A DNA stretch of 64,000 bases from positions 92,194,001-92,258,000 of the forward strand of contig CM060731.1 in the NCBI GenBank assembly GCA_030704615.1. Direction: 5' to 3'. Position numbers and translations under genes: made by a program. This document shows, one piece after another, positions 1,296 through 40,516 of the stretch. The notes below the pieces were generated by a model. The model was not told the origin of the DNA. It did no database searches and saw only the letters and a program-made list of their open reading frames with translations. The stretch comes from Takakia lepidozioides. Lineage: Eukaryota; Plantae; Bryophyta. The first letter of the stretch is position 1. The number at the start of each line of letters is the position of its first letter.

Positions 1296-1630
1296 TGTCA
1301 AGTTAAATAAGCACAGTGTGAAAACAGCTAGAATAAAACTAGTTATTTGTATTTAACACTTGGATTTAGGTCAAGTGTTAAATCAGATGTCAAGTTTAGT
1401 TTGACACCTGGTCCGTCTTATCTTCACGAGAGCGGCAGTCGCGCGGCTCATCTTTCTCGAGTTGAGCCTGCGCGACCAAGCTCCTACATGCGGTTAGATT
1501 TGAGTGTGCTTATGTAGGGGTACAGGTTGTTGTGGGGTGGAGTCCCCATAGCTTGGGGTGCCCCTGGCTCGACTACTATTTCTAAGAGTGATGGTTTGGT
1601 TTTCATGTTTTGTGTAAACAGTGTGTTCGT
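1296..1630 (+). repeat. Terminal repeat A1 (335 bp), identical to A2
   Basis: Matches 12993-13327 base for base by eye. It is followed by a unique 90-bp segment ending in TGACA at 1720. Confidence 0.95.
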
Positions 1631-1727
1631 CACTCGAGAGAGATGCGCCATCTAGTTTTCTAGTGCTAAGCTAGATATAATGTTTGTTTTAGCACTATTA
1701 TAATATACCTTGGTGTGACACAGGTCT

Positions 1728-3025
1728 GTGAATGATTCAACTGAGTGTTTAACCATTCTGGAGCGGCAGAAAGCTATTAAGCTTGCGGCGGATACTTCAC
1801 TTGCAGTTACTGCTAGCGGATCTTGCTGGAGTCACGCGTTTAGTAGAGATCTTGCTCAGGCTACTGGAGATGAATGCAGCCTGATTGATTCATCAAGTAA
1901 CGACGGGTTAAAGGTTAGCTCTTTTTCGTGCCTAGATTCTTCTGCAGCGATCCTGTCATCGTCTTAGGGCTGCCGTGTGGAGTGGAGATGAAGGGCTTGC
2001 CGTGGGTGACTCCAAGCCAGCCCGTTTTTTTGGATTGAAGAGGCCTGTGAGCAAGGGTACCGTTTATGGAGAGCCCAAGAATCAGGGTATTACCCAGTTC
2101 AAGTTTCAGCGAAGCCTGCGGTCTGTAGCTGAGGAGCGGCCAGGCAGAGAGACGACTACAACGAGAAGGAAGAGATGGTAATGTCGGTATCGCAGGGCAC
2201 TCGTCAGTAACTGCCCGACGCCAGCTGTTATTCAGCCTTTCTGTGGCACTTGGAGCACTAAGGTTGGGCAATGTTGATCTTCCTGCAAAAGCAGCAGTTT
2301 CAACGAGAGTAAAGCTCAAAGACATTAAAAATCCCAAGCTGCAGGATGCTCTCAGGGTGGCGGTTGCTGGAGACCTGGAAACTGCTGAAGAATTGTTTTC
2401 AGCTTTGATAGATGAGGATTCCGCAAATGCCAGTGTCTGGTCCAACCGGGGGAGTGTGAGGGTCTCCCTTCTGAAGTTTGAGGAGGCGGCCCAGGATTTC
2501 AGTAAGGCTATTGAGCTGGCTCCTGAGGCCCTAGTCCCATTTCTTAATCGCGTCATTTCTTACGAGGCACTTGGACGCTATCAGGAGGCTATTGCCGACT
2601 GCAAAACTGCCATTGTCAATGACCCTGAGGAGTTTGCAGCTTGGTTTAACTTGGGAAAGGTGGAAGCGTGAGTAAGTGACTATGACACTGCTTTGACTGC
2701 TTATTCCAGAGCCTCAGTGCTGGCTCTTGGAATTGCAGGATACCGACTCAAGTAAGCTCTGGTTCTCTTTCAGCTCGACAGATTGGGGGAGGCCAAGAAA
2801 CTGATACAAGGCCTTGTCCGGAAGTATCCAAATTACACTGAGGCTCATGCAGCTCTAGCGGCAGTGCTGTGGAAAGAAGGTGACCGCAGCCGGGCAGAGG
2901 AACAATTCTCTGAGGCCACTGCTCGGGAACCGCAGTACAGCAATATCAGGTGGATTGGTGTAGAGCTGCAGTGGCCACCAGGTGCCGTGGAAGCCATGGC
3001 CAAGTTTCTTAATATCACTTACTAA
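1728..3025 (+). pseudogene. Captured intronless host TPR-protein gene (probably plastid/thylakoid-targeted), disrupted
   Basis: TPR motifs ASVWSNRGSVR..FEEAAQDFSKAIELAP, PFLNR..YEALGRYQEAIADC and AAWFNLG. An RRQLL...AKA Tat-like signal precedes them. In-frame stops at 2669-2671 and ~2753. No introns. Confidence 0.8.
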
Positions 3026-3143
3026 GATAAGATTTTGCCAAGCATCGTCTTCAAATAAGCGAAGCGGAAGTCTACAATTGTTGGGCAGCGTTCTCTCTAT
3101 TCGGCTGGGGCCAGGAAGCACAAGTCTGGCGGACACCAAATCA

Positions 3144-3430
<287 letters not shown>

Positions 3431-4042
3431 GAATTTAGGTTCGAAGATTGGCCGTCCGTTCGATCTGCCGTCGCTGTGCTGGCATCTGCTCGGCGAGGAG
3501 AATCTCGCAACAGAGCCCACTCAGAGTTTGCAAGCTTGGGCTAGGTGAGGAAGCGGGAAAGAGATGGCGACAGCAATGGCATGCACGCGGCTTGCTGCGG
3601 CCCCTTCCTTGGCCGTGGTGCAAAGATCCCGTTTTTTTTTTTTTTTTGGCAGCTCAAGCTCTGTGGACATTGGTAAGGGAACCTGTGAGAACTACATGAA
3701 CGGCCTCGGGAACCCGTAGATAACCTGGGAACAGGTTGTAATGGCGAGAACGTTTTGGTGTTAAAAAAAAAAAAAAAAAAAAAAAACCTTTTGATCTAAT
3801 TTAAATGATTTAGAGCCTGATTGGTCATAACTTTGTCAGATGGACTCCGTTTGACTCAGTTTTTGGGGGAATAGCTGCAGAAAGGGGAAATCTACCTATC
3901 TTAACCTAGTTTTAGTTTTTGGGACTCTGCTAAAAATCTATGGAATTTTTAGAGTGTGAGTGTGCCGTGAAAAATCCACAATTCTGTTTCTAGAACCAAT
4001 TCTGGTCTATTTGAGAGACAAATCTATGGATGTCCTCCTTGC

Positions 4043-4792
4043 ATGGCTGGGGGAAATGAGGACGTAATTGAAGGGCAGGTCTCTTCTCTTAGCCTGTGCA
4101 CACAAGGGGACAGGATTTATGTTTCCCAAGGAACTCAGACTGATTTGAGTGGAGAACAGTTGGACGAGTTGATTGCATACTGGGAGTCAGGCATTAGCAG
4201 TAGGCAACAGACTGCTGTAGTTGGCATTGAGGGCCTCAATATCGCCTTGGACAGTCAGAACTCTGTTGGAGCCAGCAGTTCTGCAGCTGTAGGTGAAATA
4301 CCAAAGTGGGTGAAAGCTAGGCTTGGAACACAGCCAAAGACAGCCCCGGGGACCAAGGTGTTCAGCCACAAGGCTGTGGTGTACTGGAGCAGAGGAGCAG
4401 GAGCTACACAAGTTTGTGCAATCAGACAGCGTTGCAGCCGGACACGCTCTGCACAAGGCAACCACGAGCGGGGGTTCATTAGCGAGGACAAGTTTGTTCT
4501 GTTTGAAGAAGATGCAGTCATTCGCAATGAGGACACCCGCAACCGTCTCAAAGCTTTCGAGTTGAGAGACTATCAGACTCTACCTTTGTTTTCTTTAGTG
4601 TTCAGTCAGCGGGAGATAGCAAAGTGTTGCTTTGTCTCTACTTGGCAAAAAGAGGAGGAGGGTTGGTTAGAGCGAGCTACTGTAGCTTGGGACAAGGTTA
4701 GTGGCAGGTTTCTGGACATAGATATACCTCCTACACCTTACCATCATGCAGAGCGAGGCACTTTGAGAGAAGTCTGGCAGTTGATAGCATAG
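4043..4792 (+). CDS. Accessory 249-aa ORF of the DNMT retrotransposon, unknown function
   Basis: ATG-initiated open frame upstream of gag, collinear in copy 2 (58550-59299). No motif recognised. Confidence 0.55.
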   Translation: MAGGNEDVIEGQVSSLSLCTQGDRIYVSQGTQTDLSGEQLDELIAYWESGISSRQQTAVVGIEGLNIALDSQNSVGASSSAAVGEIPKWVKARLGTQPKTAPGTKVFSHKAVVYWSRGAGATQVCAIRQRCSRTRSAQGNHERGFISEDKFVLFEEDAVIRNEDTRNRLKAFELRDYQTLPLFSLVFSQREIAKCCFVSTWQKEEEGWLERATVAWDKVSGRFLDIDIPPTPYHHAERGTLREVWQLIA

Positions 4793-5311
4793 ATCAGGAT
4801 TAGATCTTGCTGGGTCGGGCTTCTATTTTTCCCCTCCATATCTGTACTATTTTCATTACCTTGTACTTGTAGTTGCCAAAGCCTCTCTTGGTGGAGGCCA
4901 GTCAGTCCGGGGTTTTGGGCTGGGATATTCTGCAGGATCAGCGTTGCTGCTGGATTTTGGTGTGGGGGTGTTGATGTTTTGATTTCTTGTGTTTGGATCC
5001 CCCCCAACACCTGCATGCTTGACTGTGCGCCATGTTGGTTTTGTGTGGGCGCTTGCTTTCATAGGGATTAGGCCGGATTTGATCACCGGTCAATCCTAGA
5101 GTATGCTGTCGGTGGTGAGGCTGGAGTGATGACCAGCAAGACCACCAGTGTTTCTTCTATGGTGAGGCTGGGTTGATGACCAGCCAACCATAGGAGTTCT
5201 TGCGGTGGATGCAGGTGCAGGTGCCCTGAGCCATTGGGATATGACCCTTAGACTGCAACAGGTGCCCACCCGTGTCACTATTAGATTAGTACTAGAGACT
5301 TATAGTGTCAC

Positions 5312-7950
5312 GTGGAGGAGGTGCACATTGTGAGTGTCATTACGGAGTTACCCAAGGGTTTTGAGGGGAGTACGGCTACAAGCAGTACCAGTGAGAGTGG
5401 GTTCACAAGACGAGGTATTCGGTTCAGACCACCTTCACCGCCACCCTCAACTACTGTAGAGTCAGACACAGACTCGGAGGCTTCATCAACAAGTGTGCAG
5501 TTTCATTCGCCATTGTTGTGGGACGACATGGAGGAGATGTATGGAGCTACCAAGGGGCCTCGTAGGTACTCTGGAGCTATGGGCACAATTGAGTTGGATG
5601 ACTTTATCCAGGAGTTTGACAGCTGGTGTGATTTGCAGCAGATGCGCAATCCACAGCTATTCACCCCATTCATGGCGTGGAAGGGACTGTTCCAGCATTT
5701 GGAGAGCCCGCCTATGGACGATTACCACGAGTTCAGGCGAGGACATGAAGCAGAGATTGAGGAGTGGAGGATGTATTGGTCACCTGACTACGTCTCCATT
5801 ACTCGAGGCATGACGCGACCAGTAGCTGCATCAGTACCAATAGCTCTCACAGTAGTAGTAGTGGAGCAAGTAGTGCTGGTACTTCTGTAGGTGGTACCAG
5901 TTCAAAAGGTGCTACTACTCCTCCTGCCACGACTACAACACATGTGCCTAGATTCAACCCGGTGGTGGAGTTCTTCCAGGAGTTGCGGAGGAACTACCAA
6001 GGTGTACGGACAGAGAAGCTGCAAAGTTTGCAAGACTTCCAGCGCAAACCCAGTGAGAGCCTGCGAGAGGCGTACACTCGTATGAGGCGCTTGATAAGTG
6101 TGACCCAAGGGGTTACTGAAGCTCAGGCAATCCAGTTTTGGTATGGAATTCTGGATAAGGAGCTCAAGAGAAGGGTGCGAGATGCAACCCTGTTACAAGC
6201 AGCCCAACCCACATTAGCAGATGTGTTTCTGCTGGCTGAGCGGATTGAGCTCAACATGGTGGAGGAGTGAGTTGTTACCATTGGATTTGGCAAAGACATG
6301 CCTACACGAGGCGTAGCTGCCAGCCCACAGGCACAAGGAACCGCTCGACAGCGTGGTCAGGGGGGCAAGGTTGCCCAGCCCAAGTTCCATGGAGCTTACA
6401 GGGGACCTCAGGTGCAGAGGCCCGTGGCATCTTTTGCAGGCCAACAGCAACCAGGGGTGATATGTTGGACATGTGGAGGACCCTATGTCAAGAGAGATTG
6501 CCCAGAGAGTGGCAAAAGGCCGGCACAAGCACAGCCTGCACAGTTGCAGTGTGGGCATTGTGGCAAGTATGGGCATGGAGATGCCCAATGTTATGACTTG
6601 CACCTGAGTTGCGCCCAGGCCAGTTCCAAGGGAACAATGGTGGCCGGGGGCGAGGTGGACCAGCCCAAAGAGGACGAGGTGGTCGGGCACGAGGTGCAGG
6701 CCAAGGGCAAGCTCCACATGGCCAAGGACGCAGAGGTCAGGGTGTTGACCAAGGCATGGCCAATCGGCTTCAGCAGCTAGAGCAGAGGCTCGCTGCCATG
6801 GCTATAGCTCAGGCGGTACCGGCTCCCAGGCGGGATGGTCCACCTCCTGCTCCTGAGGGAGGAGATATGGGAGGCATGGGCTTTATGTGCGGAGCAGCAC
6901 TACCACTAGAGCAGGTGGAGTTTGCTGCAGCCGTGACTCGAGGAGCATCACGAGTTCCTGAGCCACGAGGTGCAGAGGTGGAATTGGATTCACAGTGTGG
7001 GGAGGCAAGCCGTCAGGCGAGGCTTCCTCAGTCATTCACATTGGCGGAGACTGTGTCGACGCCATCCATGGCACCTAGTTCTCGCCCGACTGCTACCGAG
7101 GCGGAGGTTACTATGCCATTGGGGAGAGCTATACGTGCAGCACTGACACCTGCTACCAAAGCTAGTGCGGCCGGTGTGTTATTGGGGGTAGCCACCTCTG
7201 TATGTCAGGCCCCACTGTTCTCGGCAACAATGATTGCGACGCCGGGGGTGAGACCAGCTGCAGTGTTCCGACTAGCAGCAACACTCTGTGAGAGTGGGGA
7301 GGTCACTTCATCTTCTGCGGAGTTAGTGGAAGGTGTAGCGGCAGAGGGATCCTCGGATTTGAGGGTCAAGACTGCCACGGCTGCGCCCTGGCAAGCTGCA
7401 GCTGTCAGGTTGACGGAGCTGCCAGCTAGGCCAGCCTTTGAGCGCGCCATGGTGACACCTGGAGTTGTCTTGTTAGACAACCAGGGAGGCATTTTCACTT
7501 TGAGTGGACCGGCAGGCAAGAAGTACCGGCCACTGCGGGTCTTGTTGGACTCGGGAGCTCAGCCACTGATGTTGGGTAGAGCTGCTATTGCAGGTTTGGG
7601 CCTCATGGAGGCGGATATGGAGCCTTGTCCTTTCCAGATACAGACATCTCTGGGAGGATCAGAGCAGGCTCGGGGCATGACACGGCATCAATTGGCCATT
7701 AGACTGCAGCCGGATCATCCTATCGATGGCTCAGTAATGCGAGCCAAGGCCATTGTGACAGACGCAGTCTCTTACGATGTCCTCGTTGGTGGGGCAGCGT
7801 TATACCCCATGGGCTTCACCCTGGATTTTTGGGAGGAGTCAGCATCCTACAGGCCTGGATGGCAGTCAGGCGATGGTCGCCGTGCACAGCTCCCTGTGAC
7901 ATTCATTGGGGGTATAGCGGCTGCCCAGCGGGGCAAGATTCCAACACTAG
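5312..7950 (+). pseudogene. gag and aspartic protease of copy 1 (frameshifts and a stop)
   Basis: Retrotransposon gag-like helices (LQDFQRKPSESLREAYTRMRRL), zinc knuckles CWTCGGP(H/Y)VKRDC and CGHCGKYGHGDAQC, an RGG-rich tract, and protease VLLDSGA. Copy 2 shows most of gag through PR in one 683-aa frame. Confidence 0.9.
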
Positions 7951-8254
7951 CCGCCTTTACAGCTGCAGTTAGTTGGCCTGGAGAGTTGTTGGAAGGCAAT
8001 GCCCATGCAGAGGATGTGCCACCTCCAGCAGAGCAGGATGACATGCATGGTATGGCGGAGTTGTCTGCCATGGTTGCTCATACTCCATTGTGGGGTACGA
8101 GCAAGGATTTGCAGCATGTTGCTGATCGACGGGTGCAACAAGCCTGGGTAGAGGCTTTTGTTCCGTCAGGAGAGGAGGAGAGTGCGGGTATTGCACCAGG
8201 ACCACCTCAGTTGTCACCATTGGATACCACACCTATTGTGTGGCAGTATCCGGA

Positions 8255-9200
8255 TGAAGGCATTTGCCTTCTGGACTTGTTTGGCGGGATCAGCACCGGA
8301 TTGGCTGCTGTGCTACAGGCAGGTGTACGAGTTCGACGTTACCTGTATGTAGTGAGAGATGAGACTGCACGACGCGTCTCACTGCGCCATGTTGCTCAGT
8401 TGGTACAGCAATACCCTGACTTGTTGCCAATGTCTGCAGTTCGTGGATACCAACAAGCCTTGCCAGCAAACATTTCTTTGCTGGGGGCGCAGGATTTGGA
8501 GCAGGTTGGCTCCATTGATCTGGTAGTGGCAGGTTGGCCCTACCAAGGGCATTCATCAGCCGGGCATGGCAATGGATTGCGAGACTCGAGGACGGGTCTG
8601 TTTTGGGAGATGGTGCGGATTTTGCGCTGCTTGCAGCTTCATCAAGCTGTATCTCCAGCATACATCTTGGAGAATGTACCACTGATGGGTGATTCTCGGG
8701 CCAGGGTGATGGCCAGTGTGCATCAAGTCCGGTCGTGGCTTGGGTCAGCAGTGTTGCTGGATGCAGCTGCAGTGGGGTCACGGGCTCATCGTCCACGGCT
8801 TTGGTGGACTAACTTGATGCCACCCGCACTACTCAAGCGTGCATTTGATGGGGTGCAGCGGCCAGCACACCTTACCGTGGATGGCATTTTGGACACAGGG
8901 AGGCAGTCTCAACGTGTGAGACACGATGACCGTTCGCCTTTGGCAGTGGTCAACAGGGTGGGTCAACCACGAGCAGCATTACCTACACTGCTCAGCTTCC
9001 CAGGATCCCATGCTTTTCGGGATGGTGGACCTGGCCTCCTGTGGGATGCTCAGTTTGCAGCAGTTAGTGGAGCCTAATGCCGACGAGCGAGAGCGGGCTA
9101 TGGGGTTTTCCACTGGGACCACGGCGGTGCCTTCGCTTTCTGAGGCATCACGACGTCAGGTGTTGGGGCAAGCAATGGATCTCAATTGCTTGACTTGGAT
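8255..9200 (+). pseudogene. DNMT3-like C5 cytosine methyltransferase domain within the polyprotein (copy 1; catalytic Cys replaced by Tyr)
   Basis: Motif I LLDLFGGISTG; IV DLVVAGWP(Y)QG; V GLRDSRTGLFWEMVRIL; VI YILENV; VIII DAAAVGSRAHRPRLWWTNL; IX ERERAMGF; X RRQVLGQAMD. It is in frame with the protease in ORF 6609-9077, with a 1-nt frameshift at ~9055. Confidence 0.93.
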
Positions 9201-9510
9201 TATCAGCTTGGCTATGGCTGAGCAACGTAGAGTGCGGAGTGCACTCCCCTTCATGGTCTCTCTGCCTACCGAGACGGTACAGGCAGCGAGTGGGGGCGAG
9301 CCGGTGAGGACCACGGGGTGTAGACATCCATGGCACACGTGGGAGGTGCTCGAGGTCCAAAGGGAGTTGGCAGCCAAGGCAGCTGTGATGGATGAGGTTG
9401 GGGATTTTTCTCGGGTTGAGGAGGTTCTCAATGATGAGATGATGGGGCAGGATGAGGCCTTGTCATTGACTGAGCAGGAAGGGGGTACTGCTCAAGAGGT
9501 TGCAGCATAG

Positions 9511-12500
9511 CAACCACGGGACGCGTCCTCTACCTCTAAGCCCACTGGACTTAAGGTTGCAGTTACGGAGGACAATTGGGAGCCTGACATTGGACCCATT
9601 GTCACCGGAGGAGAGAGACGACGTATACGGCGGTTCCTGAGGGCTTACAGGAATTGCTTTGCCTTCAGTTTGAAGGACTTGGGAGCACTGAAGGGTCAAG
9701 AGATCCGTATTGAGTTGGCCACTGACACGCCAATCTTTCGGAGACCTTATAGATACAGTGACATGGAGAGGTCTTTGATTCAGATGAGGACTCAAGATCT
9801 CTGGGAGGCAGGTTTGGTGGAGCTCTCTGGTGGAGAGTATGCTTCAGCCACAGTGATGCCAGCTAAGAAGGATGTCTATGGCAATTGGACGGAGAGACGT
9901 ATGTGCGGTGATTACCGGCCTGTAAATCGTCAGACCAAGTCCGATAGGTATGCCATGCCAACACCAGAGGAGATCTTTGATGCCATTGGGCATTCCAAGG
10001 TCTTTAGCACGTTGGATTTACGATCCGGATATCACCAGTTGCCGATCAAGGAGGCGGATAAGCAAAAGACGGCATTCTGGGGGATCAATGAGCACGGGAA
10101 GGATTGCCTATACCAGTGGCGGTTCTTACCATTTGGGCTTAAAAACGCTCCCGCTGAGTTTCAAAGAGTCATGGACAGGATTCTAGCAGGGGTGGAGTTT
10201 GCTCGGTGCTACATAGATGACATCATCATCTTTAGTGCTACGGTGGAGGAGCATGAGAGACACCTTCAGGGGGTATTTGAGCGCTTGAGGACGCACGGAT
10301 TGAAGTTACATCCGGGCAAGTGCAAGTTTTTCCACAACCAGATTGAGTATCTGGGTCACATGATATATCCTGGAGGATTGGGGGTACAGCAGACTAAGGT
10401 AGAGTCCATTGCACAGGTTCCACGCCCCACGGATGTGAGCCGAGTTCGAGCTTTCATGGGGTTAGCAAACTATTACAGACGGTTTGTTAAGGGATTTAGT
10501 GCCATTGCAAAGGCTCTAACCAAGCTGACCAAGGTGGACCAGGAGTGGCAGTGGGAAGATGAGCAAGAACAAGCTTTTCAAGAGCTCAAGGCGAGGTTGA
10601 CCTCGGCGCCCATCTTGAGACGACCTATCAGGGGGCGTCCTTTTCAGCTGCATACAGATTGGAGCATGTTGGGGCTTGGAGCGGTGCTCACACAGGTGGA
10701 TGATGAGGGAAGAGAGTTCGTAGTGGCTTATGCTAGCCGCTCGAACAATGCTGCAGAGTCTAAGTATAGCTCATATGAGGGAGAATGCTTAGCTGCAGTG
10801 TGGGCCGTGGCACACTTCAGGTGCTATCTATACGGCAATCTCTTCACCCTTGTCACGGATCACCAACCACTCAAGTGGTTGATGGAGTCAGACAAGCTTA
10901 CGGGGAAGCTTGCACGGTGGGCACTCATCCTTCAAGAGTATGACTTTCAGGTGGTGCATCGACCGGGTTTGGTCAATCGCAATGCAGATGGGTTGAGTCG
11001 CAATCCATGCACGAGCCAACAGGATGACACTGGAGCTCGGTGGCATGGTGAGACGGACGAGGAGATGGTGCCCGGATGGCATGCATCTGCATTTCTGTGT
11101 ATCTTGGCAGCGGAAGGCCAGGTTGGACCTGCAACAGGGATGACTGTAGATCAAGTGTCTGAGGACCCTGAGGCCAGCAATGAGCAAGGTGGCGCCAAAG
11201 ATATACATGAGGATTCAGTTGTGTTGGACTACCTCCGCACTGGAGACACGGCAGCCACTGTGACTGCCAAGGAGAGGGATCGGATCCTACAACGAGCCAA
11301 GAGGTTCAGGTGGGAGGGGACACACCTGCTCCGAGTGTGGGAGGATGGTCGAGTGAGGATTGTGCCTCACCCAACACAGCGGGCACGGTTAGTGCGGCAT
11401 GCCCATGAGGAGTTGGGGCATTTTGGGGTGCGACGCACTCATAGTCTACTGCAGGGGCAGTATTGGTGGCGTGGTATGCACACAGAGGTGCAACAATTTG
11501 TGGCTAGGTGCATGGTGTGTGACAGGGTGCGTGCTTCATTCAACGCCCCTACTCCACAATTGCACCCTCTTCCGATCATGGGATTGGGCTACAGGTGGAG
11601 TCTTGACTTCGCAGGGCCGTTGCCACTGACCATGCGCCACAACAAGTACGTGTTGGTGATGGTGGAGCACTTCTCCAAGTGGATTGAATTGGTTCCATTG
11701 CCTGATAAGGCTAGTAAGGGAGCTGCGTATGCATTCCTGGATTGTGTGCTTAGCCGATTCGGTGCTCCAGCTGAGGTACTCACGGACCAAGGGAGAGAGT
11801 TCTTGGGGGAGTTTCAGGCTTTGTGTCACAAGGCCTTGATAGACCACCGCACCACTTCTCGGGATCATCCTGAGGCCGATGGCTTGGCAGAGAGAGTTGT
11901 TCAGACAGTAAAGAGGGGTTTGCGCAAGTATGGCTTGCAGAAGGGACACCTAGGAGATTGGGACCTTCAGTTACCCTGGTTAGCCATGGGCTACAGGTTC
12001 AGCAAGCAAGCATCACTTGCCTCCTTCTCACCATACTTTCTTCTCTTTGGCCGAGAGCCGGATTTGCCTAAATCCATTTGCAGAGAAGCTGCTACAGTTC
12101 TTAACCTTGACGATCCGGACATGTGGGCACGTGCATGTGAGCAGCGTGCAGAGTTGTTCAAGAGAGTCATGCCCATGGCTTTCGAGAACCTTGCCATTGC
12201 ACAACACCGTGATACGTTGAGGTATCCTACCATACGTGGTGGGGGCTATCGTCCTGGGGTTCGGAGATTCAACCCTGGTGACTATGTCTATCTGCAGCAG
12301 ACTGCTCCTACGACCCTGGATGTGACTGCAGGACGTGTTATTTTGAGGGTTCGAGAGGTCTTGCCCTCAGGCGTCTTGGTCTTGGAGGGTCGGGATGGCA
12401 TAACTTGGAAGGACCATGTGCGTAATTGTGCGCCATGTCACCTTCCGAATGTCGATGGCAGGATTGACCCAAACCTGGCAGTGGTATCTGTAGGTTTGAG

Positions 12501-12645
12501 GTGCATGTTGTGTGGGTCTGCTAAAGGGGCAGCCACCATGCTGGTGTGCGATCGATGCTCTAGAGGTTGGCATATGGGATGCTTGACTCCACCTCTTGAG
12601 ATGGTTCCAGATGGGGATTGGTTATGTCCACATTGCATTGGATAG
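9511..12645 (+). CDS. RT - RNase H - integrase - PHD finger (uninterrupted frame)
   Basis: RT RMCGDYR, LDLRSGYHQ, LPFGLKNAP and YIDD; RNase H LHTDWS, EGECLAAVWA and TDHQPL; integrase HHCC and D-D-E (SLDFAG, LTDQG, GLAER). C4HC3 PHD CMLC..LVCDRCSRGWHMGCL..WLCPHC at 12502-12636. Confidence 0.96.
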   Translation, partial: QPRDASSTSKPTGLKVAVTEDNWEPDIGPIVTGGERRRIRRFLRAYRNCFAFSLKDLGALKGQEIRIELATDTPIFRRPYRYSDMERSLIQMRTQDLWEAGLVELSGGEYASATVMPAKKDVYGNWTERRMCGDYRPVNRQTKSDRYAMPTPEEIFDAIGHSKVFSTLDLRSGYHQLPIKEADKQKTAFWGINEHGKDCLYQWRFLPFGLKNAPAEFQRVMDRILAGVEFARCYIDDIIIFSATVEEHERHLQGVFERLRTHGLKLHPGKCKFFHNQIEYLGHMIYPGGLGVQQTKVESIAQVPRPTDVSRVRAFMGLANYYRRFVKGFSAIAKALTKLTKVDQEWQWEDEQEQAFQELKARLTSAPILRRPIRGRPFQLHTDWSMLGLGAVLTQVDDEGREFVVAYASRSNNAAESKYSSYEGECLAAVWAVAHFRCYLYGNLFTLVTDHQPLKWLMESDKLTGKLARWALILQEYDFQVVHRPGLVNRNADGLSRNPCTSQQDDTGARWHGETDEEMVPGWHASAFLCILAAEGQVGPATGMTVDQVSEDPEASNEQGGAKDIHEDSVVLDYLRTGDTAATVTAKERDRILQRAKRFRWEGTHLLRVWEDGRVRIVPHPTQRARLVRHAHEELGHFGVRRTHSLLQGQYWWRGMHTEVQQFVARCMVCDRVRASFNAPTPQLHPLPIMGLGYRWSLDFAGPLPLTMRHNKYVLVMVEHFSKWIELVPLPDKASKGAAYAFLDCVLSRFGAPAEVLTDQGREFLGEFQALCHKALIDHRTTSRDHPEADGLAERVVQTVKRGLRKYGLQKGHLGDWDLQLPWLAMGYRFSKQASLASFSPYFLLFGREPDLPKSICREAATVLNLDDPDMWARACEQRAELFKRVMPMAFENLAIAQHRDTLRYPTIRGGGYRPGVRRFNPGDYVYLQQTAPTTLDVTAGRVILRVREVLPSGVLVLEGRDGITWKDHVRNCAPCHLPNVDGRIDPNLAVVSVGLRCMLCGSAKGAATMLVCDRCSRGWHMGCLTPPLEMVPDGDWLCPHCIG

Positions 12646-12894
12646 TGGGAGTGGATACAACCATGGAAGGCTAACAAGCAACGCAAGGCCCAGCTACTAG
12701 GAGACCTTGAACACCCGAGATCCTGGCTCAAGTTCACATATTGCAAGACGGCGACTAACGATGGGGCTACTCTTGTACCCGGCCCCTTGGTCTATAGAGT
12801 TTGAGTACAATAGGGACAGTGATAGAGGACTTAGTACGGCTATGGCTATTACATCTTGTAGCTATCTGGAGGTAGAGGGACCTATCCACCAGCT

Positions 12895-12904
12895 AGGGGG
12901 GCGA
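12895..12904 (+). promoter_or_regulatory. Polypurine tract of the DNMT element
   Basis: aggggggcga lies just before the TG at 12906. Confidence 0.65.
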
Positions 12905-13426
12905 TTGTGGCAGACTACTTTATTGTGCATATATGTGTGGTGTGGTTTGGACAGCGATGTAGTTGTGTAGCGATATGTATGCGCACGACAGCTGTCAAGT
13001 TAAATAAGCACAGTGTGAAAACAGCTAGAATAAAACTAGTTATTTGTATTTAACACTTGGATTTAGGTCAAGTGTTAAATCAGATGTCAAGTTTAGTTTG
13101 ACACCTGGTCCGTCTTATCTTCACGAGAGCGGCAGTCGCGCGGCTCATCTTTCTCGAGTTGAGCCTGCGCGACCAAGCTCCTACATGCGGTTAGATTTGA
13201 GTGTGCTTATGTAGGGGTACAGGTTGTTGTGGGGTGGAGTCCCCATAGCTTGGGGTGCCCCTGGCTCGACTACTATTTCTAAGAGTGATGGTTTGGTTTT
13301 CATGTTTTGTGTAAACAGTGTGTTCGTTGGTTTTCTATCATTGTGGCAGACTACTTTATTGTGCATATATGTGTGGTGTGGTTTGGACAGCGATGTAGTT
13401 GTGTAGCGATATGTATGCGCACGACA
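12904..13426 (+). repeat. Right terminal structure B1 (12904-12990) - gc - A2 (12993-13327) - 12-bp spacer - B2 (13340-13426)
   Basis: B1 equals B2 (87 bp) and A2 equals A1. The B1/A2 junction is the palindrome GACA-GC-TGTC. Confidence 0.95.
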
Positions 13427-14067
13427 AATAGGAAAGGGGGCTGAAGCACCTTGAGTGCCGAAGGCACTCAAGAAGGCGGAGGCGCTCACTAGGTGGAGCC
13501 CCTCAAACCGGGTTGCGGTGGTGGGGGCTCCGTGGTGGTAGCGTAGGGAGTCATAGTGGGGGTGGCATAGGACTCACCATGAGGCTGAGGCCTTGTGGTG
13601 GGAGTCGTGGGGAGTCTTGAGACTCACCGCGGTCCATTAGGGCTGTGGTGGGTGGGCCAAGACTCACCGCGACTCACCATGGAAGGTTGAGGGTCTAGGT
13701 GGTGGTGCACCAGATTTGGACTTGGCTAGTTGTGGAACCTCCGCGGACACCTACAAAAGTATATATAGGGAGTAGTAACCCCGAGAACGGTGCAAGCCCG
13801 TTGGTGACCAAAAACTAGTGAATAAGCGTGCGAGCCGGAAAGCGACCAAGGTGTGGGGAGCTATTCCGGACTACCATCTACCAAAGGGAATTTCCACTAG
13901 GCCCAAAGTGATGGAGGGTCTTTTGGAGGCGCAAGGGGGACCGTTATGCCCCGGTGAGCAGCCAAAGCTCCAAGTTGGCCCGACGGCCAGTTTGGGAGTT
14001 AGGCGCGCGCATCAAAGCGAGTAATATGACTTGAAGGGGAGTTTACCGAAGTGAGGTGCGCGACACT

Positions 14068-14079
14068 TGGTATCAGAGC
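14068..14079 (+). promoter_or_regulatory. Primer binding site (initiator tRNA-Met) of the Galadriel-like element
   Basis: TGGTATCAGAGC, 2 nt after the LTR end CA at 14065. Confidence 0.92.
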
Positions 14080-14120
14080 TTAGAGTTCAGTACGTGATCA
14101 TCCTTGAGATTGGTCTCACC

Positions 14121-17100
14121 ATGGGGTCGGGCAAGACAAAGCGAAAGCGGAACGGCCCGAAAGACGATGATCCCAGTGCGCCTGGTGGGGGCGACGTGTC
14201 ACCGAAGCGGCAAATGGAAAAGACGATTTTTGCTTCTGAAAGCGAGGCCGCTCGAGAGTGGGAGGAATCTGGGGAGTCAGAGCCCAAGGACTTCCCAAAG
14301 GCTCTGCCAGACCAACAGATATCTCCCATGCCAGTAGCCTTTTGAGAAGGGTTATTGGCGCAGTTTGGCGGGACGCTGAAAGACGTGATGAGGGCGGCTA
14401 ATGCCACTTCCACTAAGGCAAAGTTTAAGGTGAAGCCTAAGGAACCCGGCACCTTCGAGGGCGTCCGAAATCGGAAGACACTCAACACCTGGCTCTTGGA
14501 GCTGGAGCAGTACTTCCAGGCGGCCAAGTTGAGTGACGAGGATCGGGTGGAAGTGGCTCCCACCTATTTGAGGGGCTATGCTCAACAATGGTGGCAGAAG
14601 CGCCTTCATGACCAAGGGCCAAACCCAGAAACCTTGAGTTGGAGTGGGTTCAAGAAACTTATAAAAAGACAGTTTGTGCACATCAACGCGTCCTGGCTCG
14701 CCCGGGACAAGATGAGGAATTTGAAGCAAACGGATGACATTCGGGGATATGTTCAGGCTTTCAATGTGCTTTTGCTCGAAGTCGCGGATATGGCGGAACC
14801 AGAAATGGTCTTCAACTTTGTGGCGGGACTGGCCCCATGGGCTAGACGGAAGTTGGAGGAGAGGCCACCAAAGACTTTGAACGAGGCAATTGAAAGGGCT
14901 GAATATTTCTCGGATGTCTCTAGGGGCAAAAGACAGGGCCGTACGGAGCTGAACCAGAAGAAGGTCCGGCGAGAGGTGACTCCTTCCGACCGGAAAAGAA
15001 GTGGGATAGGCCATGCAGCAACAATGACGCATGGAAATCAAAGGGAGGTCCTACGCACATCAAGGCGGCAGATGCTTCGAAAGGAAAATCAGGTGCGTCG
15101 GCTCATGCGGACAGAAGGCGACCTTTGATGGGGTGTGCTTTAATTGCGGGGGAGCCCGGGCACACGGCCAAGAAGTGCCTGAAACCCCGACAGTTGAACA
15201 TGACTCGGGCAACCACGGAGCCGTCCGAAGAATCTATGCCGCTTGTTGGAGGCGGTGGTCGCCAAAACTTGTAAGGTAGACAACTACTCTTGTGAGTTGT
15301 ATTAGGAGACGGGAGCTTTGCGTAAAGGGAGTCAGTTGTTGTTTGTGAGCGGGATAATTTCCGGAACTAACGTGTCGTTGTTGGTGGACACAGGAGCGTC
15401 ACACTCCTTCATGACACTGGCAACGGCACGGAAGCTGGGGCTCCCAACAAGTGATGTGGGGGCCTCTATTGAAGTGCGTTCTGCCAAAGGAGAACCACAA
15501 CTGACGACGAGGGTAGCGTTCGATGTTCCTCTTCAGCTGGGGAGTTGGGAGGGACGTGAGAACTTTACCATTTGCGAGATCGAGGAGTGGATCTCATTTT
15601 GGGGATGACCTTTTTGAGCAAATCCGGAGCGGTCATAGATGGCCGCAAGAGAATAGTCATGCTACCGTGTGGGGATGGTGGCAAAGTTTTACGGGTGTCG
15701 GAAACGCCCAACCGAGTGGGAGGGCAAATAAACCTGCTGACAGCAAAGGAGTGGGCCGTGGAGGAGCCACACGAGCCCCAGTTTTTGCTTTACGTGAGAC
15801 AAGTAGAAGGAGAAGTCGATAGGGAGCCGAGCCCAGATTGGATCAATGGGATCCTGGAGAAATACCAGGATGTGATGCCGGAGGATTTACCAAGCGGCTT
15901 GCCACCACGAAGAGGAGTTGACCACAAGATAGAGGTGGTGCCGGGATCGGAGCCGCCTGCCAAGACGCCTTACCGGTTGAGCCACATAGAGTTGGTCGAG
16001 CTGAAGGCCCAACTCAAGGATCTAATGGCAAAGGGGTACATCCAGCCAAGTAAGTCACCTTACGGAGCCCTGGTACTATTTGCAAATAAGAAGGATAGGA
16101 CGCTGCGGATGTGTGTCGATTACAGGGCTCTGAATAAGGTGACTATAAAAAACCAGTACCCTTTGCCAAGGATCGACGACCTCTTTGATCGGTTGGCAGG
16201 AGCAAAGTATTTCAGCCGGATCAATTTACGCTCCGGCTACCACCAGACACGGATAGCGGAAGGAGATGAGGAAAAGATAGCTTGCATGACAAGATATGGT
16301 TCGTACGAATTTTTGGTGATGCCTTTTGGGCTCACCAAATGCGCCAGCAATCTTTAGCACCCTGATGAACTGCCTCTTTCAGGAGTGGTTGGATGACTTT
16401 GTGATCGTGTACATTGACGACATCTTGGTGTACTCGAAAACGAAGGAAGAGCACTTGGAGCACCTCAAAAGGGTGTTCCAGAAATTGCGGGAAGGGAAGC
16501 TGTATGCCAAAGCTTCAAAGTGCGAATTCGGGGTCACGAAAGTGAAGTTCCTAGGGCATGTGATTACACAAGATAGGATCAAAATGGATGACAGAAAGGT
16601 GAGGGCGATCTTGGACTGGGAACCTCCGACTTCGGTCCCGGGAGTGCGATCCTTTCTGGGACTCGCCTCCTACTACCGATAGTATGTGAGAAATTTCGCC
16701 AAGACCGCGGGGCCGCTGTCAGACCTTTTGTGTAAGTCCAAGGTATGGGTATGGAACACTTTTTGTGGCCAAGCTTTTGCCAAGTTGAAGCAGCAGATGG
16801 CGGAAGCTCCAGTCTTGAAGATCCCGGAGTTTGACTGTCCATTCGAGATTCACACGGATGCGTCAGACTTCGCCATTGGGGGTGTGCTGATGCAGGATAT
16901 ATGTCCAGTGGCTTACGAAAGTAAGAAACTGAATGAAGTGGAGCGACGGTGGCCCACGCATGAGAAAGAAATGAAGGTGGTGGTGCATTGCCTTGAGCTT
17001 TGGCGCCACTATGTTGGTTCCAACCCGGTGAAGGTGTTCACGAACAATGTCACGGTGAAGTATTTTGCCACACAGCCTAAGTTGTCCCCAAAACAAATTA

Positions 17101-18291
17101 GGTGGCAAGACACTTTGGCAATGTTCGACGTGGATATCCAGTACAAACCGGGACGGGACAATGTGGTGGCCGATGCTTTGAGTAGAAAGCAGCAGCTCAC
17201 GTTGGTGTATGAAGGTGAGACGGAGTTGCAGAGGAAAATTCGGAAGGCCTATCGGAAGGATGAGTTCGCAAAGTCGATATTGCGGGACTTGAGGCTGGGG
17301 GTTAAGTCGCAGTTCCATTTGCATAAAGGACTGCTCCGCTACAAAAGGATTCGATGCAATTATGTTGGTGGATAGGTTCAGTAAAATGGGTCTTTTCATC
17401 CCCACAAAGGAGACGGTAACGACACAGGAGACAGGGCGACTTTACTTCGCCCACGTCTTCAAACATCATGGACTCTCGAAGGACATTGTTTTAAACCGTG
17501 ATCCAAAGTTTACAAGTAAATTTTGGATTGCACTTCGGAAGAAGATGGGGACGAGGCTCAAGATGAGCACGGCCTTCCGACCTATAACGGACGGCCAAAC
17601 AGAAAGAGTGAACACTGTAGTGAAGCAAATCTTGCGAAATTATGTATCGGCAGACCAGTCGGACTAGGTGGAGCATTTGGATGCGGCAGAGTTCTGTTAT
17701 AATAACACAGAACACTCCACAACGGGAGCTTCCCCTTTTGTATTGGTCTATGGAAAAGCACCTCTGGTGCCAACAAGTTGGGCCGCCCAAGATGGTGAGG
17801 AGCCGGCAACAACAGCGGTGTTGGAAGAACGCGAGCGTTTATTGGAGCTCGCAAAGTACAACATTGCCAAAGCTAGGAAACGGTATGAGCGGCAGACGAA
17901 TCGGAAGCGGAGGGAAGTTAAGTTTGAGGCAGGCATGGAGGTCTGGTTGAACATCAAGAATTTTTGACTACCTCTGGAAGTGAGTCCGAAGTTTGTACCT
18001 CCGTATGCGGGGCCTTTTTGCATCCGGAAGGTTATGAATGAGGATGTTTATGAGTTAGAGCTGCCAGCAGACAGCAAGGTGCATCCAGTATTCCACGTTT
18101 CCCTTTTGAAGCCTTACTTCAAAGATGAAGCGCATCCGAATCGGCATCAAGTGTTGCTTCCGCCACCTGTGCTGAAATGGAAGGGCTATCATCAAGTGGA
18201 GGCAACTTGGGTGCGTGCCTCAGAAATGGGAAACGCATCCGAGGCGGTTGCAGCTTTCAAAGAGCGACCTCAAAAGCGGAAGAAGCGTTGA
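14121..18291 (+). pseudogene. Degenerate gag-pol with a chromodomain remnant (Galadriel-like)
   Basis: gag KPKEPGTFEG; PR LLVDTGASHSF; [14 protein letters not shown] and YIDD; RH TDASDFAIG and THEKEM; IN DRFSKM and DGQTER; GPF motif; chromodomain fragment KWKGY..ATW. Many stops and frameshifts. Confidence 0.92.
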
Positions 18292-18825
18292 TGGGGACAT
18301 CAACCTTGGATCGTGGGGGAGGAAATGCGTGCTTAGTCTAGCTTAGCTAGCTCAGGAATCCGATTGCAAAAACTTGTGTTGTACAAATTTTGTTTATAAA
18401 TGAAAATGTTTCCAAATGTTGTGCTTCCTATTTTGTTTGGAATGGTGATGCATGGTATGGTTGGCCAGTGTGTAGAATGCATGCTAGCTTACAAAAGTGG
18501 GAGATCTATACTCTAGTCCAGACTGCAAACATAAACACCGAAGGTTCAAAGTCTATAAAATATTTGAAAGTACATGTTATGTTAAATACAGCAGGGCGGG
18601 AGAGGGAGTGACCTAGATACTCACCCAGTATACCGAGTGCGCCCCTGCTTTACTCACAGATCATTAAGCTTGAATGTCCTGAAGAGAATGAGTCCGCCCA
18701 CATGTCTCAGCCTACATGCACAGGGACACCAACCACGACGTTAGTACCTTCCCTGCCACTAGCCCCTTCCCTATCCCCAGAATGAGACAAATGGATGTAG
18801 AAGTGTTGCCAATTAATGTACTCAC

Positions 18826-19260
18826 CAGACGTGCTTCAACAGCTGCCTTGCTAGCTCGCCCAGTCTTCGTGGGAATCTGAGTACAGGAATTTGCAATCTA
18901 CATGGCTTTGGACTTTTTCCCAAATGCAAGAGTAGTCCAGTACTTCACTAGTGCCTCCCACTGCAAATCCCTTATATGAGGCGGTTTCCCCTTACCCTTA
19001 ACATGATATACAAATCGAAACGAATTGTCTTCATCATTGTTTCTGTTGTCTTCCTCATATGCTCAAAATCCAAGTCCATGGGTGTTTAGCTATAGACTTT
19101 CTCCAAATTTTCTCTGAATTTGCTTCAAGTCTTCCATCTTCTGTTTATCGATACGCTTTGTAAAATCTAGCAATTGGTAGACTTGAAATAACCTTTGACC
19201 TTCAATGTGTGTTGAAATAACTCTAGAGTTATTTTGTCCTTGACGACATCATTGCAAAAT
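18826..19260 (-). pseudogene. CACTA TnpA-like (Ptta/En/Spm family) transposase remnant
   Basis: Minus-strand manual translation KPPHIRDLQWEALVKYWTT..KKSKAM*IANS...KTGRASKAAVEARL resembles this family. Confidence 0.5.
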
Positions 19261-24010: not shown

Positions 24011-27000
24011 ATGAGTGGATTGGGAGAGAGAGCCAGAAAGGAGGTGTTCAGTTGGCAATTTGGAAGGAGAGAGAGCGAGTGCATGCATTCCTGAGGGTGA
24101 AGACGTGTAATTTGAAGCCCCCATAGCATTATCTGTACAAAATCTCTCATCAAGAAAGGACGACTTTAAGCATCAGAAAGACAGCGTTTCAATGAATGCA
24201 CGCAAACCATGAGATAATGAGGAGGCGAGCTTGTAATTGTGCATTCAAGTGTTGGATGAGAGAAAAATGGTGGCGCAGAGAGAGGAAAGTATTGGGGAAT
24301 CGGCTCTCAAAGATGGCAAGTGTGAGCTGGATTTGGGGATCGAAGGGAGCATTCGTCGCTGCGAAGCTCTGCTGGCCATGGTTCCTCTGTCGCTGCAGTC
24401 GTCCATCGCTGATGGTGTGTCTCTTTTCCTCACACCCACACGCACAGGGATTGATCAGAGGAGTAAATATTACATAACTGCCACACTCATTGGCCTTCCC
24501 AGTGTATGCATGCAAGACTTTATAGTAGTTCGAGTTACTTTTCCAGATTCATATTTGAGACCAGCTAGAGTAGAGCTTTATGTAGCTTACTTTGGCCTTT
24601 CCATCCTCAGATTGTCACCCAAGTGGAATGGGTTACCTTTGGGTAATGAGATCAATGGCCGCAAGGCGGTGCCGCTATTGTGTTGCAAAATACATCATTG
24701 TATTGCGAGAAATTTTTCTCTCTTTCTGGTCTCTCTCGCACGCCCTATGAACATCCGCCAAGGTGGGCAAGGATTTCAATTGAAGCCTCAGGTTTATGCA
24801 ACGACGTCTTCCAGGCTCCACTTGTACACAGTTCGGATTTGTCTTTCCTCTTAAATCATTAGTGGCCATCTGTATTACCTCGTCGCGCTCTTAGGTCGTA
24901 GCAGTATCTCTAACTTCTCTCAGCTGCCCTCTGTCTTCATATGTTTGTCTGTGAGTATGCAATTAAGAGTTACAGTGACATCGCGGCCTCAGTTACTTCA
25001 TTAGATAAACAAACAAGAAAGAAAGATTGAGAGAAAGATCATAATCTTCACAAGAAGGAAGGAATTTATTCCGTCCAAGGAGAGGTTAGACCGTTGTGGA
25101 CCGTTCCTGCGAAAATAGCAGACTTCGCTCTCCCCGAGCTGGTCGTGGGTTCGTGCCAGAGGGAAAAGAGAACTGATTGATTTGACCTGCATAAAATCGG
25201 GACCTGCAGGTGCATTGAGGTCGGGGAGGAGAAGTTGGATGGGGACTAATGCAGCTCAGACATGCCTGGACCTGGAGTTCGAGAAAAAGTTGACTGGGTT
25301 GGAACCGGAGTGGACCAAGAACATGGGGCTGCTCAGTAGCATCACCGATGATCGCAAATCTACCCCTCCCGCGGTGTGTTTCTGCTTTGATACATGGAAT
25401 CTGTAACTGCCACTGAGAAACGAAATTGCATTTTCGGTCTGGACAGCAAAATAGTGGGGAAGAGGGTGTCAAAATTGCTCTAAATTGTCATGCCAGCACA
25501 CACAAATAATAATGATCCGTAGCTGGACAATCAAGGGTCTCATACGAAAATGGTCTTCTGAGTACAGCGGTATCTTCTGCAGAACAAAGATGTTGGTGTA
25601 GTTGTGCTCCCAGGGAAGAGGCCACTCAGAGGAGAAAGAAAGGAAAGGACGGAACTTTATAACTCCCATAGGAAGCTTAAAGACATATGGGTAAGAAAGA
25701 AGAATGAAAGAAACAAATGAAATGAAATGAAATAGTAAACGTCCGCAAGAAGCTTAAAGAGCTTATGGGACAAGAGGAAGAAAGAAACAAGAAGAGATAG
25801 AGGGGCCACAAACAGCCCAAAGCAACTAAAGCTCAAGGGATTGTCTAAGAGTCAATGCTTCATACACGTAAGCTGCCAAGCATTTCTGATCCTCATAATG
25901 GAAGACGTCCATGAGAGATTGGGTATCCTGGAATAGACAGTTGAATCTCCCACGGATCTGATAGTATAAAGGCCAGTGAAAGAAGGAATGTTTTTCAATT
26001 TCCCTGGAGTTCCCAAAGCAAGCGGGCATAGTTAGTCTTCATGTTGCAGATTTTTCCACCTACAAGTCTCCATCCTCAGACTGTGGGAGCCCACCCTGAC
26101 CCTCTCCAAGGCCCTTAGAAGGGAGATAGGGCTGCAGACAGGTAATTAGGCTGCAAGATCCTATCGTCATGGAGAACAAAGAACGTCTCCAGATGCAGTT
26201 GCAATTTTGTTGTTAGAGTGGCTGGTTTCCAATTCCATATGACGTGTAGATCCACAAGTTCTCTTCTGATGCATCTATTGCGGTCCTGTTTGGACGCAAT
26301 ATCTACCCCCTCTGTATTTTGTGGCAGTAGGGAACCAATTGGGGGTCCGTTGTGCTGAACAAAGTTTGACACCCGAGCATACCAACAGTGCTTGAAACAA
26401 AGAAATGAAATGAAACGAAATGGTGTTTTATAACGTCCGCGGAAAGCTCATAGAGCTTATGGGACAAAATGGAAAGAAAAACATGAGAGAAAACAGGAAA
26501 CCAGAGTCAGAGATAAGAACTATTGTTCGAGTGATTGTCTAAGGGTGAATGCCTCCTGCAGGTAGGCTGCCAAGCATTTCTGATCTTCTTAGTGAAAGAG
26601 TCCCGCGGAATAGACAATGGAATCTCCCACGGATCTCATAGTATAGAGGGCAATAGAAGAAGAAGTGTTCTTCAGTTTCAATTTCCTGGTTGCGCCCTGT
26701 GCAAGCTGGACAGAGGGGGTCCTCCCGCTGCAGGTTTTCCCATCTGCCAGTCTCTATCCGTAGGTTGTCGGAGCCCACCCTGAACCGCCCCAAAGCCCTC
26801 AGGAGAGAGGAGATAAAGAGGCCGAAAGGTAATTGGGCCGCAAGATTCTATCATCTCAGAGAACCAAGAATGTTTCTCGATAGAAATGGAGCTTTGTCGT
26901 GAGGTTTGGTAACTTCCAAGTTCTCCTGACATGTAGCTCCATGAGCTCCTTTCTAATGAGTTGGTTGCGGTCGTGCTTGGATGTGATGTCCACCCCTTCT

Positions 27001-39792: not shown

Positions 39793-40516
39793 ACGCTTGA
39801 AGACACAGTTTCGTTACAATAGCGCCTCCCTTTGGGTCCTGCAGTGCCTGATGGCTGATCACCTGGCAACTAGAAAGGTCCTGCATTGAAGGCTGCAAAA
39901 GTTAGATGCTCCCCATGCCCAGCAACAAGATATGGGCACCCCCGGCCCATCCTCCAACGATTCAGCAATCTGACCTTATGCAATTCAAATCCAAATCACA
40001 ACGCAAACTACACAAAGTATCAGGGACAACGACACAGCAGGAAAATGAGATACTTCCAATCTCAACAGCTTACGGCGACTCGCTGCTAGATGGTCTGTAC
40101 ATGGGAGCTCTGATTGTGCACTGATGGAGCACATGTAAAGGCTGGAACTGTGAACCCCGCGTACGAGAAGCTTCTCTCGTATGCCCATGCGCTGCTACTT
40201 GAGTACCGGATCACTTCCAGCCTTCTTGAAAACCACCAAAACTCAAACTGGGCACCATCTCTCTCACACAACCCGCTTCCAATTGCTCTCTCCACTTTGG
40301 CAAGACTCATACTCGTGTTGGACTAATTTTCCACGTGTATATTGGACCCCTAAAGTCCATGACCCCTTTTTTCAACCGAACTTATCAGTTTTTTTTTGTT
40401 TTTGTTTTTATTTTACAGAACAGGGGGTAGTAGTAGCCCTGATACGTTTTATTATAAATTATTTTGGGGAAAAAAATTAAAACCCCCATTACACCATAAG
40501 GCACACACACCGTAAT

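Follow-up and report, generated by a model that had tools for sequence, protein, structure and literature searches.

Introduction

KnitGypsy-Dnmt3 of the alga Klebsormidium nitens is the closest described counterpart of the element reported here, a decayed retrotransposon with a DNMT3-like DNA methyltransferase (DNMT) domain in a 64,000-nt stretch of the bryophyte Takakia lepidozioides (assembly GCA_030704615.1, contig CM060731.1, positions 92,194,001 to 92,258,000, forward strand; this whole stretch is called the window, and coordinates below are its own). The main text of the 2018 paper describes for KnitGypsy-Dnmt3 Gypsy domains, a non-permuted DNMT3-like domain, DIRS-type repeats and Ka/Ks below 0.2, and places the capture in the K. 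nitens lineage (de Mendoza et al., 2018; PMC5890265). It mentions neither 'Marchantia' nor 'PHD', and two later papers citing this work mention 'streptophytes' only. Why a transposon carries its own silencing enzyme has been open since then, the sole plant-lineage example being an alga with a negative yeast assay.

SymbioDIRS-Dnmt3 of Symbiodinium likewise has split repeats and a DNMT3-like domain within its retrotransposon Pol, and the dinoflagellate retrotransposon DNMT3s methylate CG in yeast; it is, however, of the DIRS type, has a recombinase and was reported to have arisen by an independent capture (PMC5890265), whereas the Takakia element has a DDE integrase and target duplications. Among Tf1/Sushi elements and plant Tcn1 chromoviruses, moss and club-moss Ty3/gypsy elements are predicted to self-prime, but they have ordinary long terminal repeat (LTR) pairs and a chromodomain, and the survey text contains neither 'PHD' nor 'methyltransferase' (PMC6317226); the likeness to the present element is one of description. 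EpiLTRs of Cymbomonas and Euglena are LTR retrotransposons with a cytosine methyltransferase and a chromatin reader; according to the preprint text, their DNMT is sister to DNMT4 and accompanied by DAM and a chromodomain, and the authors set them apart from streptophyte Gypsy-DNMT3 (bioRxiv 10.64898/2026.05.21.726589). Host DNMT3 of non-flowering plants (PpDNMT3a/b) also has a non-permuted DNMT3-type catalytic domain, but is described with a C-terminal DUF3444 (PMC6453930), for which the scanned open reading frames (ORFs) of the window gave no Pfam match.

The Takakia element shares with KnitGypsy-Dnmt3, as its main text presents it, the Gypsy domain set (protease, reverse transcriptase (RT), RNase H and DDE integrase in Gypsy order), a non-permuted, intronless DNMT3-related domain in the pol coding region, DIRS-type repeats and purifying selection. 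The K. nitens protein KFL_009030040 (P0360) has the protease-DNMT-RT-RNase H-integrase order of the window element, is 45% identical to the window DNMT over 202 aa and falls in the same RT clade; we infer that it is a KnitGypsy-Dnmt3 copy. New relative to the published text are the range (a clade spanning liverworts, mosses, Coleochaete, Closterium and chlorophytes, as against a capture placed in the K. nitens lineage), two DNMT positions, a stop between DNMT and RT that is found in the window branch and lacking in P0360, and the self-priming and end-to-end junction proposed below. The literature search, which lay outside Repbase, subscription journals, the 2018 figures and supplementary figures and bioRxiv supplements, returned no description of the family in land plants or chlorophytes, nor of its stop, priming or junction.

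Identity and state of the DNMT domain

The window holds copy 1 from end to end and copy 2 up to the window's edge. The domain in question is the following:

8250-9250, + strand: DNMT3-like C5 methyltransferase, motifs I to X in standard order; broken in copy 1

A reading made from the sequence alone had placed a C5 methyltransferase between protease and RT, and this was borne out: PF00145 matched ORF 6597-9077 with an E-value of 6.1e-9 and 36.2 bits, above the curated cut-off of 22, and the RT ORF lies downstream (9511-12645). Motifs I (DLFGG, 8274), II (8346), IV (8517-8549), VI (ILENV, 8664) and VIII (AHRPRLWWTNL, 8784) are in one frame with the protease motif LLDSGA, as had been claimed for all motifs, while IX (ERERAMGF, 9085) and X (RRQVLGQAMD, 9151) are in another frame beyond a frameshift near 9054. 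Copy 1 reads WPYQ at the catalytic motif, with Tyr at the catalytic position, and YVVRD, with Val, at motif II; copy 2 has PCQ and ENV, a frameshift just past PCQ and a stop. Neither window copy is able to make the enzyme.

The proposed DNMT3 affinity and unpermuted motif order also held, by sequence ranking, profile and fold. A single-query comparison with solved structures ranked DNMT3A first (E 3e-7), DNMT3C/B next, and then DRM (DRM2, 6e-3) and HhaI; a 20-sequence profile kept the ranking (DNMT3 4e-23 versus DRM 6e-14), and none of its 57 matches in PDB was a DNMT1, MET1 or CMT entry. The modelled DNMT of metagenome locus L040, an undamaged relative, reached a pLDDT of 93 with DNMT3A as the top Foldseek match (E 8e-20), followed by DNMT3B, and along its full length the predicted fold agrees with DNA-bound DNMT3, far better than with DNMT2. 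Sequence and model together place the domain nearer to DNMT3 than to any of DRM, MET1/CMT, DNMT2 and the bacterial enzymes. Across the family, the catalytic Cys is kept in 234 of the 270 proteins spanning motifs IV and VI, and Cys together with the motif VI Glu in 191, with the motif VI pattern applied strictly.

Family range, selection and trees

Family copies were drawn from public-run contigs and from 80 metagenome loci, the best of those obtained in a scan that confirmed 350 of 600 stretches. Pieces of the element also occur in one public run presumed to be RNA, which by itself does not demonstrate expression. A protein search with representatives returned 606 clusters at E-values up to 1e-10. 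Named land-plant and charophyte relatives include Marchantia polymorpha (many gene models, up to 72% identity), Calypogeia fissa, Sphagnum and Closterium, along with Riccia sorocarpa and Coleochaete scutata, which match in the pol part only, and Klebsormidium nitens; chlorophytes are represented by Tetraselmis, Tetrabaena and Scenedesmus, and viral contigs by one distant locus (L001). Transposon ORFs account for several Marchantia gene models with PF00145, a point to heed when host methyltransferases are counted. The cluster of P0206 has a member, CAA9586175.1, annotated as an uncultured cyanobacterial genome, probably a mis-binned eukaryotic contig.

The protease stands 5' of the DNMT in 61 of the 63 loci with room for it and RT 3' in 52 of 62, and the DNMT has the same position in proteins of Marchantia, Calypogeia, Sphagnum, Closterium, Klebsormidium and Tetraselmis. 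Copy 2 also carries it at the same place, as had been noticed, though two copies 95% identical to each other would not suffice as proof of a family trait; it is the conservation across relatives and loci that upholds this claim. A second layout, RT-RNase H-DNMT-integrase-PHD, is common (54 proteins); it forms a separate group in both the DNMT and RT trees, and its named members are chlorophytes. Among algal relatives with the DNMT between RNase H and integrase (P0050, P0053, P0062 and others), single members add a Tudor, G-patch or chromodomain.

The ratio of non-synonymous to synonymous rates (dN/dS) of the DNMT is 0.24 between copies 1 and 2 (27 synonymous and 20 non-synonymous changes over 328 codons; Gag 0.26), 0.11 between loci L040 and L041, and 0.07-0.08 between lineages where dS could be computed, dS being saturated in most such pairs. 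The DNMT domain is a family trait under purifying selection. None of the four outcomes that the sequence-only reading had named as fatal to it was found: PF00145 matches, dN/dS between copies (0.11-0.24) is well below one, relatives with PCQ and ENV in an open frame exist (e.g., L040, and others in Marchantia and further liverworts and mosses), and the domain recurs across the family, the metagenome loci having been selected by DNMT, so that the frequency of RT relatives without it is not measured by them.

In the RT-RNase H tree, the window element groups with Calypogeia and Marchantia (support 99), with Coleochaete adjoining (87); the DNMT tree returns the same land-plant group (support 96) and is congruent with the RT tree, both placing the window element among liverwort and moss copies. 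A 29-row tree separated 23 rows, including the window and P0360, from six ordinary Ty3/gypsy RTs with an SH-aLRT support of 99.8; outgroups were few, and the window and P0360 are not sisters within the 23 rows. The RT trees are quick trees, and the 83-row tree, which left out seven proteins with short or missing domains, lacks the clean outgroup separation of the 29-row one. The DNMT tree was made by FastTree from rows that comprise no true outgroup and no host DNMT3 or DRM. Within these bounds, the grouping argues for common descent of the window element with the DNMT-bearing elements of K. nitens. Presence in land plants held for Marchantia, Calypogeia and Sphagnum; what was found is the land-plant branch of the family known from Klebsormidium, not a separate capture.

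Coding regions and the stop after the DNMT

5528-6602, + strand: Gag, with zinc-knuckle-like motifs at 6463 and 6550 (Retrotrans_gag, E 3e-4; tblastn with Marchantia P0004)
7500-7950 (approximate limits), + strand: aspartic protease, LLDSGA at 7542-7559 (weak Pfam matches, E 0.07-0.1)
9508-9516, + strand: in-frame TAG (9508-9510) followed by CAA CCA, fitting the readthrough consensus UAG-CAR-YYA
9511-12645, + strand: open pol frame of 1044 codons with RT (YIDD, 10210), RNase H, zinc-finger and DDE integrase, and a C-terminal PHD finger (12502-12636)

The gag of copy 1 is frameshifted near 5850 and 6603. The weakly matching protease has a homologous domain in L040 that matches Asp_protease_2 at 2e-4. 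An in-frame TAG divides Gag-protease-DNMT from RT-RNase H-integrase-PHD, and its context fits the tobacco-mosaic-type readthrough consensus (PMC3542737). The proposed polyprotein was therefore correct in that the DNMT is in frame with the protease, but it is not continuous with RT. Of 43 close loci, 39 have a stop at the corresponding position. In L040 the layout is intact, with a Gag-protease-DNMT frame of 1369 codons that includes WPCQ and ENV, the stop as TAG CAG TTA, and a pol frame of 1047 codons. KnitGypsy-Dnmt3 is described with the DNMT in one uninterrupted ORF with RT and RNase H; in open relatives of the window branch such as L040, DNMT and RT/RNase H share one frame with the in-frame stop between them. 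Moreover, the Marchantia and Calypogeia-cluster proteins terminate 82-84 aa past the DNMT. In the window and L040 there is no Met for at least 85 codons past the stop.

Whether the downstream part is reached by readthrough or by re-initiation, the DNMT lies on the Gag side of the stop. Because the stop separates Gag-protease-DNMT from RT-RNase H-integrase-PHD, the enzyme is likely made at capsid levels. The stop predicts both abundance and location of the enzyme, and the earlier suggestion of packaging with Gag gains support from it.

Ends, repeats and priming

1296-13426, + strand: whole element, copy 1; 12,131 bp, TG...CA ends, 4-bp target duplication AATA on both sides
1296-1630, + strand: repeat A1, 335 nt, 100% identical to A2; 1449-1462 complementary to the primer-site position
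1632-1645, + strand: primer-binding-site position, pairing with 1449-1462 by 13 Watson-Crick pairs and one G-U; self-priming predicted
12892-12903, + strand: polypurine-tract-like run immediately 5' of B1
12904-12990, + strand: repeat B1, 87 nt, 100% identical to B2, terminating in CACGACA
12987-12996, no strand: palindromic junction GACA-GC-TGTC, the element's right and left ends joined via 2 nt
12993-13339, + strand: repeat A2, including about 11 terminal nt missing from A1
13340-13426, + strand: repeat B2, the right end of the element

The element extends beyond the 5312-12645 first assigned to it. Its limits agree with public-run contigs that represent the empty site by joining 1284/1286 to 13427, and it sits within the 5' region of another Gypsy element. 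The term 'LTR-type' applies in part: TG...CA ends, a short target duplication and a polypurine tract are all present, but in place of one full direct terminal repeat pair the repeats are split in the order A...B-GC-A-B, as in DIRS elements. Unlike DIRS, PAT and Ngaro elements, it has an rve (DDE) integrase, and no tyrosine recombinase was matched in nine scanned ORFs. Troyka was also considered and rejected; as described (PMC12440569), it has CG...CG ends, a 3-bp duplication and an animal-only range, as opposed to the TG...CA ends and 4-bp duplication here. The combination of split ends, DDE integrase and target duplications suggests that integration proceeds differently from that of textbook LTR elements, and finders based on LTR pairs would probably miss such elements.

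This long form also occurs in L045 (the same insertion as L051), L068, L072, L076 and L077, giving six distinct insertions with both ends, window copy included. Four have a perfect 4-bp duplication, one a mismatched one and one none; the junction spacer varies among long forms (GC, AC, TC, GT), and a purine run directly precedes B1 in all long forms displayed. A short form, A...B, also exists: 12 loci terminate at B, with a perfect duplication in three of the four having both ends, and it could be the product of a one-repeat circle or of recombination between B1 and B2. None of 23 5' ends, from 20 distinct insertions, had the mirror form, in which the B-junction would lie 5' of A1, so a two-LTR circle opened at random at either junction, which predicts it, was rejected. 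Host contigs were too short at the 3' end for separating long, short and mirror forms. In two loci (L010, 6206-6387; L012, 6216-6397), the 5' end has an inverted purine tract and B repeat in place of A. Identical repeats flanking broken ORFs suggest that copy 1 was moved recently by a helper in trans.

Directly 3' of A1, where a primer site would be expected, there is no tRNA-type TGG start; the segment there instead base-pairs with A about 150-190 nt from its start. Pairing exceeded that of all 20 control segments in 16 of the 22 5' ends tested (some of them duplicate loci), at about 150-190 nt in 14 of the 16, and was retained in four distinct types of sequence. Four loci have a TATA-like box 25-30 nt upstream, and the 5' RNA of the window is predicted to fold into the primer-site pairing with a z-score of -5.7. 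Self-priming by Tf1/Tcn1 elements, as reported in the survey text, is a precedent (PMC6317226). If priming occurs in this manner, reverse transcription would duplicate the unit B-GC-A, bounded by the purine tract and the primer site and enclosing the integrase ends.

Proposed explanation and its alternatives

With guarded confidence, we interpret the element as a decayed Ty3/gypsy retrotransposon of the KnitGypsy-Dnmt3 kind, whose DNMT3-like enzyme, made in the Gag-protease frame, was likely packaged in bulk and likely methylated the element's own new cDNA. Transcription would start about 150 nt into A1. The UAG would halt most ribosomes, yielding Gag-protease-DNMT, and rare readthrough would append RT-RNase H-integrase-PHD. 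The 5' end of the RNA would then anneal to the primer site and prime its own reverse transcription, and the usual strand transfers of LTR elements would leave B-GC-A at either end of the cDNA. As the polypurine tract and the primer site delimit this unit, the ends recognized by integrase would be internal to the repeat. Integrase would open the left junction and the free cDNA ends (the end of A and the start of B) would be joined, producing A...B-GC-A-B; HIV-1 integrase has been reported to cut a palindromic 2-LTR junction (PMC1905944). Before arrival the packaged DNMT may mark the cDNA, as protection or as self-silencing, and the PHD finger may direct insertion to chromatin, probably via the histone H3 tail. 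Why a transposon carries such an enzyme becomes directly testable, since open Gag-protease-DNMT frames are present in Marchantia polymorpha, for which genetics and methylation mutants are available.

Several observations weigh against this explanation. The opening of only the left junction requires an asymmetry that is unexplained, because random cutting of a two-LTR circle predicts the mirror form. Six of the 22 primer-site tests failed, and in two of the 16 that succeeded the pairing lay at a second position. The stop is at its place in none of 12 loci of a divergent sister clade; among the 39 loci with the stop, only three match CAR-YYA in full, and 29 have CAA CCC, the commonest context, with an in-frame ATG after it that would permit re-initiation instead. 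Many algal relatives carry the DNMT after RNase H, and bulk packaging is therefore not universal. CpG depletion is uninformative, since the element (CpG ratio 0.51, against 0.75 and 0.70 in two neighbouring Gypsy elements) is no more depleted than a host gene (0.46) or the whole window (0.56). Close, decayed metagenome copies have dN/dS of 0.5-1.0, as expected post-insertion. Finally, the KnitGypsy-Dnmt3 domain produced no methylation in yeast, although human DNMT3B likewise failed in the same assay, which the authors call inconclusive in the main text (PMC5890265).

As for the ends, it is possible, though in our estimate doubtful, that they are regenerated as in split-repeat DIRS elements, the RNA reaching B2 and the internal B1-A2 junction templating a circle junction without any internal cut. 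Such a route accounts for A...B-A-B and for the lack of mirror forms among the 20 distinct 5' ends, and the repeat layout of KnitGypsy-Dnmt3 is described in its main text as DIRS-like (PMC5890265). The polypurine tract before B1, the self-pairing primer site after A1, the DDE integrase, TG...CA ends and 4-bp duplications point, however, to LTR-type priming and integrase chemistry; none of the nine scanned ORFs matched a tyrosine recombinase. Methylation of the cDNA is compatible with either route.

An unlikely alternative to cDNA methylation is that the enzyme acts on chromosomal DNA, travelling with the integration complex and, together with the PHD finger, methylating the insertion site or its flanks. 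The finger is closest to those of CHD4, KDM5 (PHD1), PHF21A and BAZ2, which read unmethylated H3K4, the cue also read by animal DNMT3, and in many algal relatives (the 54 proteins of the second layout) the DNMT directly precedes integrase; in the window branch, on the other hand, the stop places the DNMT with Gag, in excess of integrase. Still less probable is that the domain was kept for another job, such as methylating or binding the genomic RNA or an RNA/DNA hybrid, or as a decoy for host silencing factors. The reported inactivity of the Klebsormidium domain on yeast DNA and EHV in P0360 where ENV is expected would fit this, but Cys and motif VI Glu are retained together in most of the family proteins counted above, and the modelled fold resembles DNA-bound DNMT3 throughout. 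A neutral passenger role or an origin by misassembly is hardly credible for the DNMT and was rejected, since, although both window copies are broken and copy 1 has passenger gene fragments in its leader, the domain keeps its position in proteins from Marchantia to Tetraselmis, is under purifying selection with congruent DNMT and RT trees, and is covered by a single contig (7951-12910) under another organism label.

Returning to methylation of the element's own cDNA, a bolder form of it, which we consider a long shot, extends to a green-plant-wide lineage that self-primes, hides its integrase ends in a repeat palindrome and uses a capsid-level DNMT3 to methylate nascent cDNA, including the conserved CpG next to the junction (in CACGACA), thereby restricting opening to one of two identical junctions. 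If so, the DNMT would be part of an integration switch and not camouflage alone.

Copy 2, cargo and neighbouring features

58212-64000, + strand: copy 2 (extra ORF, gag, protease, DNMT), 95.4% identical to 3698-9488
3971-4792 (copy 1) and 58485-59299 (copy 2), + strand: extra ORF 5' of gag, about 250-270 aa
1900-3697: low-copy cargo in the 5' leader of copy 1, with a decayed TPR piece (+ strand) and a kinesin piece (- strand), both from Pfam matches

The window ends before the RT of copy 2, and no repeat A was found upstream of that copy. The extra ORF, present in both copies, had no Pfam match, no counterpart in 81 loci and no Atlas match at or above 0.9. The cargo is missing from copy 2, and its contig depth is far lower than that of the remaining element. 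Host gene fragments abut the point where the match between the copies begins (3698/58212), namely the TPR and kinesin pieces in copy 1 and a piece of ribosomal protein S7 (57800-58211) in copy 2; the leader may be especially prone to capturing mRNAs.

Copy 1 lies in an ordinary Gypsy element (about 900-1295 and 13427-19000) whose primer site near 14069 is of the tRNA-Met type and whose Ty3 capsid ORF is at 14346, and a chromodomain Gypsy element (50509-57800, - strand; SH3_Tf2-1 and Chromo matches) stands directly upstream of copy 2. Elsewhere in the window, there are an apparently intact, intronless gene of 569 codons for an AMP-binding acyl-activating enzyme (38104-39813, - strand) and decayed PPR-like fragments (weak Pfam match) in inverted clusters at 42800-45900 and 52100-54600. 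A further fragment is repeated in several inverted and direct copies at 25650-33900, with ORFs at 26856-27452 and 30654-31340, the latter lacking a Pfam match; we take it to be the 3' end of a LINE-like element.

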